A stretch of 64,000 bases of DNA from Patescibacteria group bacterium. Lineage in GTDB: Bacteria; Patescibacteriota; Minisyncoccia; Phycocordibacterales; UBA12079. This document shows positions 2,787 through 61,219 of the stretch, piece by piece (position 1 is the first letter of the stretch; the number at the start of each line of letters is the position of its first letter). Where the stretch lies: NCBI GenBank assembly GCA_018817595.1, contig JAHITU010000001.1, forward strand, positions 32,109 to 96,108, read 5' to 3'. Both the position numbers and the translations under genes were made by a program. The notes below the pieces were generated by a model, which saw nothing but the letters and a program-made list of their open reading frames with translations, was not told the origin of the DNA and did not search any database.

Positions 2787-3835
2787 TTTAGTAAATCTTT
2801 TAAAGATTCTTCAATTATACTTAAAGGAACTTTCTCTAAACATCTCAAAACCTTTCCTCTACATTTTTCTAAATGCTCTCTCCCCTCATGTATATTATGT
2901 TTACAACCTTTAACGGAATAAAGTGTTTTTGCATTTGAATTATAATAAGAAATCCAATTAGGTGTTGTTGCTGGATGAGTAATAACTAAAGATTTTTTTC
3001 CTAAAAAAGAAGCTATATGAGTTGTCCCTGTGTCCACTCCTATAAAAAAGATTGATTCGTCTATTATTGTGGATAATTCCGAAATCTTTTTATTTATCAT
3101 AGTCAAAACATCTTTATTAAAAACTGAAAGAACGTTTTTCAAAATATTTTCATCAAAAGAACCTCCTGTTAAAACAATTTTCAAAGTAGGATACAACTCT
3201 TTTATTTTCTTAATAATATCTATAATTTCTTTTTCTACTAAACTTCTCCCTAAAGAGGATCCTTGTGTATGAAAAACAATGTATTTATTTTTCTCCAAAT
3301 TGTTTTTTTCTAAAATACCTTTGTCTTTTGAATAATTAAAAGAGGGTTTTTCTTTTTTTATTTTAAATCCTAAGTTTTTTATAAACATTTTCAGAAATTC
3401 TGGATAAATGATTTTGGTATCATACTCAAATAGTTCTGAATAAATAAATTTATTTATTCTCCTCCTATCGTTAAAACCGATTAATTTAGAACCTCTAAAT
3501 AATGATATTTTTCTAGCTATTATTTTTATATATAAAGAAAGCTTACCTGGAGTTGGAGCAGTAATTACTAAATTTTTTGAAAAAGAAAACTTAATTAGAG
3601 TTACAATTCTCAATAATCCTATAAAGCTTTTACGATTAGCTAAAATAATATTTATATATGGATATTTTTCTAAAAATTGTATAAGTAATTTTTCATTTTT
3701 AGGAACAACAACAAACAATTTCAAAACAGGATCGTTTAAATGAATATTCTCTAGAAGAAAAATAGTCATCAAAAAATCACCAATAGAACCATTTTGAAAA
3801 AATATTAGATTTTTATATTTGTTTTTCATTATCAA
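2783..3835 (-). CDS. Glycosyltransferase family 9 (heptosyltransferase-like)
   Basis: 350 aa. GVDTGTTHIASFLGKKSLVI resembles the GT9 DSGPMHLAAA region, in a GT-B layout. Confidence 0.6.
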   Translation of the reverse strand: MIMKNKYKNLIFFQNGSIGDFLMTIFLLENIHLNDPVLKLFVVVPKNEKLLIQFLEKYPYINIILANRKSFIGLLRIVTLIKFSFSKNLVITAPTPGKLSLYIKIIARKISLFRGSKLIGFNDRRRINKFIYSELFEYDTKIIYPEFLKMFIKNLGFKIKKEKPSFNYSKDKGILEKNNLEKNKYIVFHTQGSSLGRSLVEKEIIDIIKKIKELYPTLKIVLTGGSFDENILKNVLSVFNKDVLTMINKKISELSTIIDESIFFIGVDTGTTHIASFLGKKSLVITHPATTPNWISYYNSNAKTLYSVKGCKHNIHEGREHLEKCRGKVLRCLEKVPLSIIEESLKDLLK

Positions 3836-22376: not shown

Positions 22377-23558
22377 ATGAATACAAAAATACAGCATCTT
22401 TTTGGCGGATTGTTTGGAGCAGTGATAGGAATAATTATTGCCGGTTTCTTTGAAAACCAAGGACTTCTTTTACTAGCTTTTCCGGGAGCAATCCTCGGTT
22501 ATCATGTCAGAAGTCTCAAATCAATTTTCAAGGACAATTTTGAATTTATTTTAAATTTATGGAAAACCGTCTCGATAAAGACAACGAAATTTATGAACAA
22601 ACCTTTTACACTTTCTAAAATTATATATGTACACAGTCAGGAATCAATTGGTTTCTTTATTTCACTCATTTCAACATGTTTTCTTTTTATAACCAGTGTA
22701 ATTATATGGTTCTTCAGCCGTCCAAAATGCTTTTTAAACTGGCTCAGAGAACATCCGATAAACAGAGCTAACTTTTTGAGCGGGACTGTATGTTTCTTGT
22801 ATGTTTTTGGGGCAATTGGATTGATATATCTTCTTTCTCAGTATTGCCTCTCTGATACCTATGAATGTAGTCGGTCTATCGGGCCAAGAATGAATCAGAC
22901 AGAAATCTTAATCGTTGATACTGGGGTAATTCACTATCTTCTTTTTACAATAATTTGCGGGGTAGTTTTAATTGCATTCCCATTGATGAGTTTTATTGAT
23001 AAAAAAGAAACAATGCTCAGAAACCGTGGATGGTCAACTTACAAAAGATATAAAAGAGATGGGGTACTAGCATGGATTTATTCCGATATTAAAGACTTAT
23101 TCATCATACAAATCTCATACCTTTATGTCGTTATTATAGGAATCTCCTATTTTACTATTATAGGTGGTGGAATAATTTTGTTTCTATTTATTCCCGCCGG
23201 CGTAGCATTTGCAGTAGGGTATGGAATATACCAAACGGCAGTGAAAAAAGGAGGTTGGACCTGTGCTACCATCACAACAATTGTCACGCTTATATCAGGA
23301 ATTGTTTTCTGGGATACGATTATTTCCAATTTTACACTGAGGTGGCTTATTGCCCTGTTCACAGGTGCCTTGGCAGGTACTCTGAGTTTGCTTTTTAGTG
23401 AACTTACTACAAAATTGAGTACAATTAAAATTGTACAAGAAATGATCAAAAAGGATTGTGATATGTTTGGCGGAATTTGGTTAATAACAAAAAAACCTGC
23501 CTGTTTCTTTCCAGAAGGACTAAACTTCATCTTGAAACCTGTTGAATTATATTTGTAA
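22377..23558 (+). CDS. Polytopic membrane protein, function unknown
   Basis: 393 aa with 8 or more hydrophobic helices. RBS AAAAGGAG precedes the ATG. Confidence 0.55.
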   Translation: MNTKIQHLFGGLFGAVIGIIIAGFFENQGLLLLAFPGAILGYHVRSLKSIFKDNFEFILNLWKTVSIKTTKFMNKPFTLSKIIYVHSQESIGFFISLISTCFLFITSVIIWFFSRPKCFLNWLREHPINRANFLSGTVCFLYVFGAIGLIYLLSQYCLSDTYECSRSIGPRMNQTEILIVDTGVIHYLLFTIICGVVLIAFPLMSFIDKKETMLRNRGWSTYKRYKRDGVLAWIYSDIKDLFIIQISYLYVVIIGISYFTIIGGGIILFLFIPAGVAFAVGYGIYQTAVKKGGWTCATITTIVTLISGIVFWDTIISNFTLRWLIALFTGALAGTLSLLFSELTTKLSTIKIVQEMIKKDCDMFGGIWLITKKPACFFPEGLNFILKPVELYL

Positions 23559-23640
23559 TTTATTTTGTTCTTTATTTAACCAGAAAGGTTTGTCAATTTA
23601 TTGGCAAGCCTTTTCTTATTGTTTTTATATTTGTTTAAGC

Positions 23641-24212
23641 ACCTGTCAGAGTCGAACCTACCTACCCCTATGTACCAAAAGGCGTGGACAGGTAAGCTGA
23701 CGACCTATGGTTTACGATACCATTGCTCCCGCCTCATCGGCGAGTCGCCGATGAGGCGACTACCATTAAACTTCAAACTGAGCCCTCTGTCGGACTTGAA
23801 CCGACCACCTACGATTTACCCTGTTAGAGCTGAGGGCGAGAATTGAACTCGCGACCTACGGTTTACGATACCGTTGCTCTACCAACTGAGCTACCTCAGC
23901 TCTAACAGGGTAAACGATACTATTATCCCGCCTCATCGGCGGGTCGCCGATGAGGCGACTACCAGATGAGCTAAGAGGGCAAACTCGTCTTAATCCCCAC
24001 CGGCTGGAGTTATATTGAGCCCGAGGACGGGATTGAACCGACGACCTACACATTACCATTGTTGAAACCTCCTAAGGTCGGTTTCAACTCCACCAACTGA
24101 GCTATTTCAATTACCTTTTGAGCCAACAAACGGAATCGAACCGATGACCTCTCCAGTGGACCATTAAAACTTGCGAATCTCGTCTTAATCCCCACCGACT
24201 GGAGCTCGAATG
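23641..24212 (-). other. Array of tRNA-Thr-derived fragments and pseudo-tRNA pieces with interspersed GC-rich palindromes
   Basis: Three copies of a Thr(CGU) anticodon arm (GGTATCGTAAACC or variant). T-arm/acceptor 3' halves at about 23770-23826 and 24017-24050. A 35-nt duplicate of the tRNA-Thr(GGU) 3' end at 24121-24155. Palindromes at 23731-23757 and 23930-23956. Confidence 0.5.
23828..23900 (-). tRNA. tRNA-Thr (anticodon CGU)
   Basis: Reverse complement folds manually as acceptor GCTGAGG/CCTCAGC, D arm GCTC-AGTTGGTA-GAGC, anticodon arm ACGGT-AUCGUAA-ACCGT, T arm GCGAG-TTCAATT-CTCGC, discriminator U. Confidence 0.7.
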
Positions 24213-24285
24213 AGCCAACAAACGGAATCGAACCGATGACCTCTCCCTTACCATGGGAGTGCTCTACCGACTGAGCTATGTTGGC
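24213..24285 (-). tRNA. tRNA-Thr (anticodon GGU)
   Basis: Acceptor GCCAACA/TGTTGGC, D arm GCTC-AGTCGGTA-GAGC, anticodon arm CTCCC-AUGGUAA-GGGAG, T loop TTCGATT. One U·U mismatch in the T stem. Confidence 0.65.
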
Positions 24286-24364
24286 TAGTTGTTATATGAT
24301 ATTTTATTTTTATATTTTTTGCAAAACAAAAAGCAAAGCTAAACGCTTTGCTTTTGTTATTATG

Positions 24365-24438
24365 CGCGATCGAAGGGATTTGAACCCTCGACCTCTCGCG
24401 TGACAGGCGAGCGCTCTAACCAGCTGAGCTACGACCGC
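24365..24438 (-). tRNA. tRNA-Asp (anticodon GUC)
   Basis: Acceptor GCGGTCG/CGATCGC, anticodon arm CTCGC-CUGUCAC-GCGAG, T arm GAGGG-TTCAAAT-CCCTT. 74 nt. Followed by the hairpin aagcaaagc-taaac-gctttgctt (24327-24356). Confidence 0.7.
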
Positions 24439-24488
24439 AATTATACTCCAATACTTTAACAAATTTTTGTGTATTTCTCAACACTTTG

Positions 24489-24562
24489 TGTCGACGAATG
24501 GATTCGAACCATTGATCTGGCGCGTATGAGACGCCCGCTTTAACCAACTAAGCTACGTCGAC
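24489..24562 (-). tRNA. tRNA-Met/Ile2-type (anticodon CAU, elongator-like)
   Basis: Acceptor GTCGACG/CGTCGAC, anticodon arm GGCGT-CUCAUAC-GCGCC, T arm AATGG-TTCGAAT-CCATT. 74 nt. G1-C72 is paired, so it is not initiator-like. Confidence 0.7.
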
Positions 24563-25233
24563 ATTTTTAATGCCTTTAATAGACCTAAAACTTTATATTT
24601 CAAATAAGTGCTTTTTCTAATTTTTAAAGACAAAACCCCAAAATAATTATCATAATTTTCATAAACCTTCTTTTGTTTTATTTTTAAAAAAACAGGGTTT
24701 CCAAACTGTTCAATAGGTAATTCTAACAGATTAGACCAAAATTTCAATACTTTTTTAATTCTAGGTCTATGAATTTCGTTTATAAAAATCCTAGGCATAA
24801 ATTCCTCTTCTTTTATTTTAAATATTACTTCAAACCATCTTTTCATAAAAACAATAGAATCTGGGTCAGAATTAACAAACGCTAATGCACTTTTATCAGA
24901 TTTAACACCTTCTCCCCAATATAAACCTAAACCTACCATCAACAGATCTTTTTTTGATATATTATTTATAGCTTTAAGTCCTTCTTTTTCATAAAAACTA
25001 ATTTTATCTAATTTCTTTTGATGATTCATTTTAGCTCCAATCATTCTTCCTTTATTTCCTGCTTTTATAGCATTTTTCTTCAAAAGACTTTTTTGCTTAT
25101 CTGTAAGTTTTATGTCTATGCACCAAGAACTAACAGAGCCTCTAGATACGCCTAATACTTTTTCAATTGATCTAATACTCCATCCTTTCTTTCTTAATTG
25201 TTGAGCTTTTATTTTTTCTTTAAACTTAGCCAT
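24553..25233 (-). CDS. HTH + single-motif LAGLIDADG-like protein (putative homing-endonuclease-like)
   Basis: 226 aa. N-terminal HTH KKGWSIRSIEKVLGVSRGSVSSW. LLMVGLGLYWGEGVKSDKS resembles a LAGLIDADG motif. The last 10 nt overlap the 5' end of the tRNA-Met. Confidence 0.45.
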   Translation of the reverse strand: MAKFKEKIKAQQLRKKGWSIRSIEKVLGVSRGSVSSWCIDIKLTDKQKSLLKKNAIKAGNKGRMIGAKMNHQKKLDKISFYEKEGLKAINNISKKDLLMVGLGLYWGEGVKSDKSALAFVNSDPDSIVFMKRWFEVIFKIKEEEFMPRIFINEIHRPRIKKVLKFWSNLLELPIEQFGNPVFLKIKQKKVYENYDNYFGVLSLKIRKSTYLKYKVLGLLKALKMST

Positions 25234-25268
25234 TATGTTATATATTGTAGCATATGGTTGGTTTATTA

Positions 25269-25324
25269 CAACAAGTAAAACAAAAACCTCAGAATTAATT
25301 CTGAGGTTTTTGTTTTACTTGTTG
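25269..25324. terminator. Perfect 27-bp inverted repeat (2-nt loop) directly 3' of the initiator-like tRNA
   Basis: caacaagtaaaacaaaaacctcagaat / attctgaggtttttgttttacttgttg. The right arm overlaps the tRNA 3' end by 3 nt. Confidence 0.6.
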
Positions 25325-25392
25325 CGGGAGTCTGAATCGAACAGACACCTAGAGGTTATGAGCCTCCTGTGCAACCTTTACACCATCCCGCG
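25322..25392 (-). tRNA. tRNA-fMet-like (anticodon CAU, C1·A72 mismatch)
   Basis: 5' CGCGGGA paired with 3' TCCCGCA leaves C1·A72 unpaired, as in bacterial initiator tRNA. Anticodon arm GGAGG-CUCAUAA-CCTCT, T arm GTCTG-TTCGATT-CAGAC. 71 nt. Confidence 0.6.
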
Positions 25393-25395
25393 ATA

Positions 25396-25583
25396 TATTT
25401 AATATTTAATTTTCAACTATTATAATAACCTCTAAAGGTTATAAGTCATATTGCTTCATGTGCAGTTCGTCTACACCATCCCGCGATATATTTAATATTT
25501 AATTTTCAACTATTTTAATAACCTCTAAAGGTTATAAGTCATATTGCTTCATGTGCAGTTCGTCTACACCATCCCGCGATAAT
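25396..25583. repeat. Tandem direct repeat (about 93 bp x 2) of degenerate tRNA 5'-half-like units
   Basis: The unit ends in caccatcccgcgat, identical to the 5' acceptor/D region of the tRNA at 25322-25392. The unit also carries aacctctaaaggtt, echoing the anticodon stem. Confidence 0.7.
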
Positions 25584-25831
25584 TTAGCTTATAGCTTTTA
25601 GGAAATTAGGGTGTTAGGAGAAAAAATCGCTTTGCGATTTTTTTCTTTTCTACCTTTTCCTTTTTTCAATAATATAAAATATAACCCAAAAAACCCAAAA
25701 AAACAAGAAAAAAATAATTTCTAGACGGCTTCATTACTTCACTACGTTTCGTTTCTCGCAGAGACGAATTTTTATGAGGCAAAATTCACATAAATAATAC
25801 TTAATATATACTATATAATATGTAATATAGA

Positions 25832-26419
25832 CTAAATAAATTGAAATTCTTCAAAAACAATTTTATATAAACCAACTGCTCTCTTAGCTGTTCTTTGTGT
25901 TAATAATGAGTCTGTTCCTCCGTGAGCTATTTGATTTCTTATTTTGTGCGCCTCCCAAGCACTATTTATTGTAATGAAATCACTTCTTTCTACTTGTTTT
26001 AATCTTTCTCCCAAAGACTCTCCTGAGTAACCGGACTTTTTCATTATTTCATCTAGAATTACATCAGCATCTAAAACAGCCATTCTCCATTCAGCTGGTG
26101 AATCCGAGTTCACATAACTTACTATTTTTTCCCATCTCTCGTTTTTAATTTCTCCTCCTTCAAAATCTACAGTAGAAGAAACTACGGTATCAAATATTTC
26201 AGAATTTTTTGCGGAAACCTCTTTCATTTTGTGGCGAACATAAAGAATCCCAGCCAACAACAAAGCAGAAAGGATCAAAGAGTAAAACATTATAGAAGAC
26301 CAATTATCATAGTACAACTTAAATAACCTAACCGGGTTAAGATAATAAAATATATTTGAAATTAAAAGATAAATCCAATAATAAATTTGTCCAAGATTTA
26401 AGAAATCAATATTTTCCAT
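25832..26419 (-). CDS. Membrane-anchored protein with a C-terminal HEPN-like (Rx4H) motif
   Basis: 195 aa. Two N-terminal TM helices. The C-terminal AWEAHKIRNQIAHGG carries an R-x4-H motif. Confidence 0.4.
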   Translation of the reverse strand: MENIDFLNLGQIYYWIYLLISNIFYYLNPVRLFKLYYDNWSSIMFYSLILSALLLAGILYVRHKMKEVSAKNSEIFDTVVSSTVDFEGGEIKNERWEKIVSYVNSDSPAEWRMAVLDADVILDEIMKKSGYSGESLGERLKQVERSDFITINSAWEAHKIRNQIAHGGTDSLLTQRTAKRAVGLYKIVFEEFQFI

Positions 26420-61092: not shown

Positions 61093-61146
61093 GAAGCACA
61101 AAATACTTAAAACCAAAGCTAAACGCTTTGGTTTTAAGTATTTTTG

Positions 61147-61219
61147 TGCGTGTGCCAGGACTCGAACCTGGGACCACAGAGGTATAAGCTCTGCGCTCTA
61201 CCAACTGAGCTACACACGC
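61147..61219 (-). tRNA. tRNA-Ile (anticodon UAU)
   Basis: Acceptor GCGTGTG/CACACGC, D arm GCTC-AGTTGGTA-GAGC, anticodon arm CAGAG-CUUAUAC-CTCTG, T arm CCCAG-GTTCGAGT-CCTGG. Followed by the hairpin aaccaaagc-taaac-gctttggtt. Confidence 0.65.

Follow-up and report, generated by a model that had tools for sequence, protein, structure and literature searches.

A tRNA-Thr(CGU) gene nested within an interrupted paralog at a threonine-tRNA locus of a Patescibacteria group bacterium

How does a complete tRNA gene come to stand in the middle of another tRNA gene, with perfectly complementary sequences on its two sides? This question is raised by a threonine-tRNA locus in a 64-kb stretch of DNA from a Patescibacteria group bacterium (contig JAHITU010000001.1 of assembly GCA_018817595.1; the whole stretch is referred to here as the window), in which an intact tRNA-Thr(CGU) gene is enclosed by the two parts of an interrupted one. 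The window has a G+C content of approximately 30%, carries an initiator tRNA of the bacterial type (C1/A72), and encodes RsmI, GatA, and a DUF4015 protein. For comparison, many related genomes were sampled at the locus that lies upstream of rsmI, and we designate these loci by L-numbers. The closest of them come from uncultured Patescibacteria / Parcubacteria-like metagenome-assembled genomes of the Candidate Phyla Radiation (CPR).

In our reading, a threonine-tRNA transcription unit of a CPR bacterium ends downstream with this locus, which has been remodeled by repeated recombination. The explanation that we favor, with a probability of roughly 0.55, is that of a hotspot of recombination and integration: a disabled paralog encloses a working tRNA, the complementary flanks of the working tRNA form an RNA helix (the stalk) that is under selection and probably aids folding or processing, and the other tRNA-like pieces nearby are leftovers. 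The conserved, covarying stalk is the most interesting and most testable part of the locus.

The inner gene, its stalk, and the interrupted outer gene

Every feature of the locus lies on the minus strand. The intact tRNA-Thr(CGU), here called the inner tRNA, occupies positions 23900-23828 and is called by both ARAGORN and Rfam (at 23827/8-23900), with a score of 71.8 bits for RF00005 against a threshold of 29. It has the four stems, the 7-nt anticodon loop, and the T-loop consensus of a canonical bacterial tRNA, its stems covary among relatives, and it is the single canonical tRNA-Thr(CGU) gene of the 64-kb window. An earlier interpretation, made without database searches (the sequence-only reading), had described this tRNA as flanked by exact reverse complements. 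The gene calls and the repeat analysis agree with that description, except that the inverted repeat (I2) is longer than had been noted, with 21 nt per arm (23894-23914 and 23815-23835) and 100% complementarity.

The 21 bp of the inverted repeat consist of a 14-bp helix between leader and trailer, which is the stalk, and the 7-bp acceptor stem of the inner tRNA. Pairing in the stalk begins at position -1, which faces the discriminator base of the inner tRNA. The left arm, which is the 5' leader (TTTACCCTGTTAGA), spans 23901..23914, and the right arm (TCTAACAGGGTAAA), which is also defined by covariation, spans 23815..23828, its first base being the discriminator, U73. The helix of about 20 bp that is characteristic of an RNase III-type stalk is thus present as 14 plus 7 coaxial base pairs, covarying in five lineages. 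Such an extension is exceptional: among the 106 tRNAs of all collected sequences, only these tRNA-Thr(CGU) genes have a leader-trailer extension of at least 13 bp, most tRNAs have one of 3 bp or less, and none of the other tRNAs in the 64-kb window carries a stalk-like extension. We therefore rejected the stalk as a general tRNA feature of these genomes. A shorter extension, in which leader and trailer lengthen the acceptor stem by 8 bp, occurs on tRNA-Ile(GAU) at the more distant L003 (2437-2511) and L019 (2979-3053); at L019, the 3' end of this tRNA (GAGTCCTGGCATGCGCAC) is repeated approximately 110 nt downstream (3160-3190). The likeness of TAACAGGGTAA in the right arm to the I-SceI site was judged a coincidence, as the motif is not kept in L061 or L067.

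The enclosing gene, an interrupted tRNA-Thr(CGU) that we call the outer gene or shell, spans 23781..23980 and was recognized from its sequence, its predicted fold, and its identity to L057. As the sequence-only reading had proposed, its two halves pair as an acceptor stem (GCCCTCT at 23980-23974 with AGAGGGC at 23788-23782), and a perfect T arm (23805-23789) and the 5' part of a D arm are present. The 5' segment (23980-23959) reads GCCCTCT-TA-GCTC-ATCTGGTAG, and the 3' segment (23817-23781) reads ...AAATCGT-AGGTG-GTCGG-TTCAAGT-CCGAC-AGAGGGC-T. Between them, the anticodon loop is replaced by the stalk and the inner tRNA, an insert of 99-101 nt, and the D stem has suffered damage in its 3' strand, which reads GAT- in place of GAGC. 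RNAfold predicts a cloverleaf within a cloverleaf-like shell, with a free energy of -99.7 kcal/mol (z = -9.4). The outer gene lacks a contiguous cloverleaf, and neither ARAGORN nor Rfam calls it as a tRNA; at the nested locus both call only the inner tRNA, as had been anticipated. The sequence-only reading had left open a nested or a permuted arrangement. On the coding strand, the outer 5' half (23980-23901) precedes the outer 3' half (23828-23781), so the arrangement is nested and the idea of a permuted gene falls.

A second interruption of the outer gene is a GC-rich hairpin (hp) of 29-31 nt in the D loop, where it follows GGTAG and precedes the 3' D-stem strand (copy A, 23929..23957, found as inverted repeat I4). 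Copy B (23730..23758, inverted repeat I3) occupies the same loop in another tRNA-Thr(CGU) copy, the third, which is degenerate and is described below, and both hairpin copies are contained in direct repeat D6 (39 nt, 97%). This GC palindrome had been given a length of 33 nt, which is too long, but it does occur twice and was found nowhere else in the 64 kb (0 copies are expected by chance). Among 75 related loci, hp is present at threonine-tRNA loci only. The 31-nt stretch that holds it is identical in L075, for which RsmI identity to the window is 76%, and differs by one base in L056.

The nested order (outer 5' half, left arm, intact tRNA-Thr(CGU), right arm, outer 3' half) recurs at L056, L061, L062/63, and L067. 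The RsmI protein of L056 is 89-90% identical to that of the window, and those of L061, L062/63, and L067 are approximately 82% identical. At L001 and L058 there is a plain tandem of tRNA-Thr(GGU) and tRNA-Thr(CGU), yet the right arm is retained there, together with remains of the outer 3' half. The sequence-only reading had named comparison with relatives as the test that might overturn it, should they show a simple tandem pair with the outer halves absent and no transcripts; with the right arm and these remains in both tandem loci, the reading survived the comparison. The outer gene itself derives from a real tRNA: at L057 (76% RsmI identity) the outer tRNA-Thr(CGU) is uninterrupted and is called as a tRNA, and its first 22 and last 41 nt are identical to the two halves in the window.

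This recurrence also bears on the concern that repeated tRNA sequences from mixed strains were mis-joined during assembly. Loci of this kind do break assemblies: an independent assembly (L077) ends inside the inner tRNA, and a tRNA-Thr(GGU)/tRNA-Thr(CGU) chimera at L071 could be an assembly error. However, L077 matches the window at 100% from within the inner tRNA onward, the nested order is repeated in four other lineages from independent samples and assemblers, and mis-assembly cannot yield covariation. We regard an artifact of this kind as extremely improbable.

Were the outer gene functional, its hairpin-shaped inserts would be removed, as a new kind of bacterial tRNA intron, or its fragments would be held together by pairing, and each transcript would give two tRNAs. 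The inserts do recur at three positions (approximately 20/21, 36-38, and 53/54), and every one of them is a hairpin abutting the junction. In addition, the window, L056, and L061-63 have outer acceptor stems with little or no damage, and outer sequence is conserved far above the neutral expectation. Nevertheless, the inserts show neither a bulge-helix-bulge motif nor a ribozyme match, and other lesions have accumulated: the window has a broken D stem, L061 has lost the variable region, and L067 lacks the 5' T-stem strand and has a foreign acceptor. The residual outer anticodon varies (CGU, CGC, or UAC), and any product would be a duplicate of the inner tRNA, of which there is an uninterrupted copy in every case. 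A functional outer gene therefore seems very unlikely to us. Under the explanation that we favor, the outer gene would have been disabled by the insertion of the inner tRNA and by the GC hairpin in its D loop, and is probably without function.

Conservation and covariation of the stalk

We aligned the stalk across the five lineages that have both arms (the window, L056, L061, L062/63, and L067). Thirteen of the 14 stalk pairs are paired in all five lineages. Two pairs show changes on both sides (U-A, C-G, U·G), three show changes involving G·U only, and the six pairs proximal to the inner tRNA (GUUAGA/UCUAAC; GTTAGA/TCTAAC in DNA) are constant in every relative that has the stalk. For the whole structure, none of 500 shuffles matched the observed pairing or covariation, with the proviso that this control ignores relatedness among the sequences, and sliding the partners against each other lowered pairing from 96% to 35-40%. 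RNAalifold, which was not told of the stalk, found it independently.

At the four-fold degenerate sites of the adjacent rsmI gene, the window is 37-49% identical to each relative, which amounts to saturation. Because neutral sites of rsmI are saturated, a neutral 28-nt flank would not be expected to stay complementary or even alignable. The five lineages must also be old because their inner tRNAs differ by many compensatory changes. Furthermore, G·U pairs are present in the stalk of L056, L061, L062/63, and L067, and because such pairs are mismatches in DNA, they argue against maintenance of the arms as a DNA palindrome. The comparisons show conservation of the stalk as a base-paired RNA, and we take it to be a helix under selection.

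Several considerations weigh against this interpretation or limit its reach. The covariation statistics are thin, as both arms are present in five lineages only, and the shuffle control is weak, since it takes no account of kinship. The stalk is also dispensable: L001 and L058 keep an intact tRNA of the inner type directly after tRNA-Thr(GGU), without a left arm. The identity of hp, of the outer halves, and of X1 (a partial tRNA-Thr(GGU) copy described below) is too high for old neutral debris, and requires either selection or recent exchange between lineages. As the window is part of a genome, a further tRNA-Thr(CGU) gene may exist elsewhere. Finally, the involvement of RNase III in the mechanism proposed below is a guess, and the mechanism does not account for the entry of a whole tRNA with perfectly symmetric flanks into an anticodon loop.

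Some of these points would suit a rival view in which only the inner tRNA has a function and all the rest, with the stalk, is debris. The arms would then be complementary because of a recent inverted duplication or because repair keeps a DNA palindrome uniform, and the similarity between lineages would come from recent exchange. In favor of this view, L001 and L058 do without the stalk, and L056-like and L057-like sequences are recombined in the window's unit. Changes in hp are uncompensated in L056 and L058, and the integrases and homing-endonuclease-like open reading frames (ORFs) found at these loci make exchange plausible. The history of the stalk is harder to reconcile with debris. Old lineages, whose inner tRNAs are separated by many compensatory changes, all retain it; its G·U pairs, which would be G·T mismatches in DNA, would not survive homogenization of a palindrome but do pair in RNA; and full compensatory swaps have occurred at two stalk positions. 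We consider the debris view unlikely, and we retain a selected RNA helix as the preferred interpretation of the stalk.

Recombination, integration, and the surrounding tRNA pieces

The outer gene of the window combines two types of sequence. In L056, the outer acceptor stem is of a different, compensated type (GCCACCT/AGGTGGC), which is found intact in L002, L018, and L052. Between hp and the right arm, both included, the central part of the window's unit shows approximately 97% identity to L056, and the inner tRNAs of the two are 100% identical. With ends of the L057 type and a center of the L056 type, the window's gene is therefore a mosaic, which fits recombination or gene conversion between tRNA-Thr(CGU) paralogs. 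Each relative seen has exactly one intact tRNA-Thr(CGU), the type of which varies, and the other copies are damaged in various ways. Separately, a single chimera at L071 (2039-2113) joins the 5' part of tRNA-Thr(GGU) to the 3' part of tRNA-Thr(CGU) within their shared D arm, leaving a mismatched acceptor stem. This chimera, a population variant or else an assembly error, lacks one of the two tRNAs and suggests recombination between tandem paralogs.

Another way to read the mosaic is that the arm-tRNA-arm unit is a small mobile cassette with terminal inverted repeats, which would enter the anticodon loop of a resident tRNA-Thr(CGU) gene, kill that gene, and supply its own, so that the host cannot lose it. 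The flanks are perfect inverted repeats of 20-21 bp, and the unit of the window is bordered on either side by ATCGT as a direct repeat. The outer genes that serve as hosts differ in their acceptor stems (GCCCTCT, GCCACCT, and GCCAGTA), and L002 and L052 contain nested and serial 5' halves. However, the flanking ATCGT repeat is missing in L056, L061, L062, and L067, and in the window it is explained by the outer tRNA sequence. The transferred block also took with it hp and an outer anticodon-stem strand of the L056 type, which fits homologous recombination between paralogs rather than transposition of a lone cassette, and the G·U covariation indicates pairing at the RNA level. The unit was found at this locus only and has no linked transposase; viral contigs gave no match to the stalk-tRNA junction or to hp, and in phage and plasmid collections only the inner tRNA had matches, all to ordinary tRNA genes. 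With inverted repeats but a single locus and no consistent target-site duplication, the unit falls outside the class of transposons and miniature inverted-repeat transposable elements. Given this evidence, we think a cassette quite unlikely and recombination among paralogs the better account of the mosaic.

The segment between the outer gene and the intact tRNA-Thr(GGU), which is called by ARAGORN and Rfam at 24213..24285 and is the first gene of the threonine transcription unit, contains pieces that the sequence-only reading had not described (23981-24212). The first of these on the coding strand, X1 (24119..24210, found as direct repeat D1), duplicates part of tRNA-Thr(GGU). The final 36 nt of X1 match the functional gene exactly, with similarity resuming at ATGGT of the anticodon loop, and its upstream part consists of a D-arm-like piece and a hairpin (ATTAAGAC/GTTTTAAT). 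X1 is kept in L062 and L063. It is followed by a dead tRNA-Thr(GGU) (24018..24111), recognized from sequence and alignment, in which the 5' acceptor strand has degenerated, no anticodon stem is left, and a hairpin (TTGAAACC...GGTTTCAA) has been inserted. Its 3' half is almost identical to the intact tRNA-Thr(GGU) of L056, and neither ARAGORN nor Rfam calls it. The third piece, X2 (23981..24015, found through direct repeat D2 of 79 nt at 77%), is a partial copy of the 5' segment of X1 (CTCCAGCCGGTGGGGATTAAGACGAG) that abuts the outer gene; a spacer homologous to X2 was found in L056. We rejected hp and the X motif as dispersed repeats, both being confined to this locus within the window (for the X motif, too, chance would give 0 copies elsewhere).

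Downstream of the outer gene, the sequence-only reading had described a further degenerate copy with an anticodon arm and the palindrome. We recovered this copy, a third tRNA-Thr(CGU), at approximately 23637..23778 from its sequence and its alignment to the intact GCCACCT-type tRNA of L052. Its anticodon arm is intact (ATGGT-ATCGTAA-ACCAT), and hp copy B occupies its D loop. Its lesions are a 40-nt insert between the T stem and the T loop, a damaged 3' acceptor strand, and the loss of any matching 5' strand. A search for further hidden tRNA-like pieces elsewhere in the window found none.

Serial duplication and integration at tRNA-Thr had been put forward to explain these copies, and the relatives bear this out. 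At L017, the ORF directly upstream of a tRNA-Thr(GGU) 3' half encodes a tyrosine integrase (Pfam Phage_integrase, E = 2.5e-34), and that 3' half starts at the anticodon loop (ATGGTAA). The integrase of L062 is 83% identical to that of L017 and is followed by a tRNA-Thr(GGU) 3'-half junction of the same type (the right-hand attachment site, attR), then X1, then the nested unit. In L061, which is probably the same species as L062 because their RsmI proteins are identical, the integrase is degraded and only its last codons are left. No integrase was detected in the window by tblastn. Like the remnant of an attachment (att) site, X1 repeats the 3' part of tRNA-Thr(GGU) from the anticodon loop and lies near the intact gene. 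Mainly from its position in L062, we suggest that X1 is the fossil of an earlier integration at tRNA-Thr(GGU), that is, an old attachment site; its similarity to the present integrase-side junction is patchy in alignment. Turnover is also visible in smaller inserts. The outer D loop of L061 carries a 107-nt insert that is missing from L062 and L063, related inserts are found at the same D-loop position in other threonine-tRNA paralogs (L002, L052, and L067), and small CCTGCC...GGCAGG hairpins lie between the T stem and the T loop at L056, L061, and L063.

The proximity of integrases, seen in L017 and L062 and absent from the window, bears on the tRNA-Thr(GGU) pieces and not on the nested tRNA-Thr(CGU). 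We rejected a simple origin of the nested junctions as left and right attachment sites (attL/attR) of a tyrosine integrase. Only ATCGT/GT is common to them, rather than a core of 6-8 bp, and deletion of the interior of an element would not leave symmetric flanks running straight into the acceptor stem. The two readings offered earlier, duplication with integration and a nested gene, both hold and describe the same thing.

ARAGORN and Rfam together give a tRNA operon in the order initiator Met, Met, Asp, Thr(GGU), and Thr(CGU). A terminator-like hairpin (24355-24329) follows tRNA-Asp and precedes a promoter-like site ahead of tRNA-Thr(GGU) (TTGCAA-17-TATCAT, about 24325-24296), which was picked up by a consensus scan. 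This site was found upstream of tRNA-Thr(GGU) only, and its motif block is kept there in L001, L052, and L058. If it is used, all the pieces would be co-transcribed, and the inner tRNA-Thr(CGU) would lie behind approximately 310 nt of tRNA look-alikes. Among known RNA families, an Rfam search at E <= 1 over 22500-26000 returned only the five tRNAs near the locus and spurious microRNA-like matches. The source of the latter is a perfect 20-bp AT-rich hairpin with a T run after the initiator tRNA (25275-25318, minus strand), which is itself terminator-like.

A possible mechanism and its relation to known systems

In the mechanism that we propose, the inner tRNA-Thr(CGU) took the exact place of the anticodon loop of an older outer gene. 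The stalk would lock the inner pre-tRNA into the right fold amid the mispairing-prone tRNA look-alikes of the same transcript. It may also provide a double-stranded cut site of about two turns, perhaps for an enzyme of the RNase III type, after which RNase P and RNase Z would trim the ends. A leader-trailer helix that is continuous with the acceptor stem would otherwise hinder RNase P and RNase Z. X1, the dead tRNA-Thr(GGU), X2, and the third copy would be leftovers, some from integrase insertion at the anticodon loop of tRNA-Thr(GGU) and others from recombination or gene conversion among the threonine paralogs, with one copy of each kind left intact after each event.

This arrangement relates to known tRNA integration hotspots and to known disrupted tRNA genes. 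Islands and prophages reportedly enter tRNA genes via tyrosine integrases and leave partial tRNA repeats behind, and the integrase crossover falls in the anticodon loop or the T loop. The tRNA-Thr(GGU) pieces fit this class, with a partial 3' copy (X1) beside the intact gene and, in relatives, an integrase beside a tRNA-Thr(GGU) 3' half, although the window itself contains neither an integrase nor an element. The nested tRNA-Thr(CGU) does not fit, as a complete tRNA lies in the anticodon loop between symmetric flanks and there is no duplicated 3' half.

Disrupted tRNA genes of archaea include those with introns (also at noncanonical positions), split and tri-split genes, and transposing introns (PMC10714607). 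As in these genes, interruptions of the outer gene affect the D and T loops in addition to the anticodon loop, and the positions of the inserts recur in paralogs; as in the split tRNAs of Nanoarchaeum, a long helix beside the anticodon position could hold the halves together. Unlike them, the locus belongs to a bacterium, has no bulge-helix-bulge, and has a full tRNA as its insert. The interrupted gene is also decaying and redundant, and splicing is neither needed nor indicated. We rejected an intron of the archaeal/eukaryal type on the ground that the predicted fold contains no bulge-helix-bulge; the residual outer anticodon stem is parted from the stalk only by 4-5 unpaired nucleotides (ATCG(U)) on the 5' side.

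In bacteria, RNase III cuts the processing stalks of rRNA operons and the hairpin-shaped intervening sequences of 23S rRNA. The locus resembles these in that leader and trailer pair in a helix of about two turns around a mature RNA and that hairpin inserts are found in loops. It differs in that a single tRNA is enclosed and the 14-bp helix continues the acceptor stem; processing is here predicted from sequence. Group I introns occur in the anticodon loops of bacterial tRNA genes, which is the same insertion position, but no intron family was found by Rfam and the insert of approximately 100 nt is accounted for by a tRNA and its flanks; a group I intron was rejected. As for related organisms, CPR rRNA genes carry many insertions (PMC10714607).

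The closest engineered parallel is the 'tRNA scaffold', in which an RNA to be expressed in bacteria is said to replace the anticodon loop. The outer gene likewise holds a structured RNA on a stem in place of its anticodon loop, with acceptor and T arms in the shell; it is, however, natural, it carries a tRNA as its cargo, and several lineages have a damaged shell. The shell might be maintained as a composite precursor, together with the stalk and the hairpin inserts. As a natural scaffold, it would direct how the only tRNA-Thr(CGU) of the cell is folded, excised, and kept stable. As a new class of intervening sequence, the inserts of the D, anticodon, and T loops would be removed or tolerated in the RNA, with a whole tRNA as the 'intron'. 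We find such a maintained precursor doubtful. The locus would gain in interest should a function at the RNA level be found for the shell or for the hairpin inserts, an outcome on which we would place equally little expectation.

In the literature on nested or interrupted tRNA genes in CPR bacteria, we found only CPR rRNA introns and archaeal disrupted tRNAs, and no nested bacterial tRNA. If our explanation is correct, this locus would give a clear example, from bacteria, of a tRNA gene that lies inside another and is conserved in this state across lineages. It would imply that tRNA genes can be replaced rather than repaired, with a new copy placed in or beside the old one and one of them surviving. 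The covarying stalk is a testable RNA element that bears on tRNA maturation in CPR bacteria, in which the RNA-processing machinery is reduced. Because gene finders miss all pieces but the inner tRNA, tRNA counts and pseudogene content are underestimated in such genomes.

Other observations concern the surroundings of the tRNA operon. Between the initiator and elongator Met tRNAs lies a 226-aa ORF (24553-25233, minus strand), the end of which overlaps tRNA-Met by 10 nt. It has an N-terminal helix-turn-helix (weak Pfam matches) and a GLGLYWGEG stretch resembling the LAGLIDADG motif, and a homolog (29% over 112 aa) is found at a different place in L056, just before tRNA-Thr(GGU). In L018, L052, and L058, clear LAGLIDADG_3 ORFs lie between the tRNA genes for Met and Asp. 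Free-standing homing-endonuclease-like genes thus seem mobile around the tRNA operon, and they could drive its mosaic structure.

Debris resembling that at the threonine genes was also seen beside other tRNAs. Elements of approximately 170-190 nt follow tRNA-Asp at L001 (9216-9381) and L052 (3596-3750 and 4235-4428), and at L052 also tRNA-Thr(CGU). Each contains an inverted copy of the T arm and acceptor end of the tRNA, GC hairpins with mini-hairpins of the GCGAAGC type, and a segment ending in GTAACTCGTGACC; joined to this segment is a direct repeat that covers the 3' end of the tRNA, starting at the T loop. Debris of this kind thus also occurs at a different tRNA, where the junction falls in the T loop. 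Just upstream of the intact initiator tRNA of L057, at 3599-3660, lies a copy of the 5' part of that tRNA (CGCGGGATGGTGTAGTGGTCGCACG...) that is truncated and altered; because of this copy, tRNA debris is not confined to the threonine genes.

Between the tRNA debris and rsmI, the window contains an ORF on the plus strand (22377-23558) for a 393-aa protein that resembles a multi-pass membrane protein and has no Pfam match. This ORF is absent from L001, L002, L052, L056, L057, L058, and L061, in which rsmI begins 0-490 nt past the tRNAs. It is probably shared with L074, and it resembles an insertion downstream of the tRNA hotspot. Elsewhere in the window, ARAGORN calls a tRNA-Ile with the anticodon UAU (61146-61219, minus strand). 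A tRNA-Ile(UAU) is uncommon in bacteria, in which AUA is usually read by a lysidine-modified CAU tRNA.

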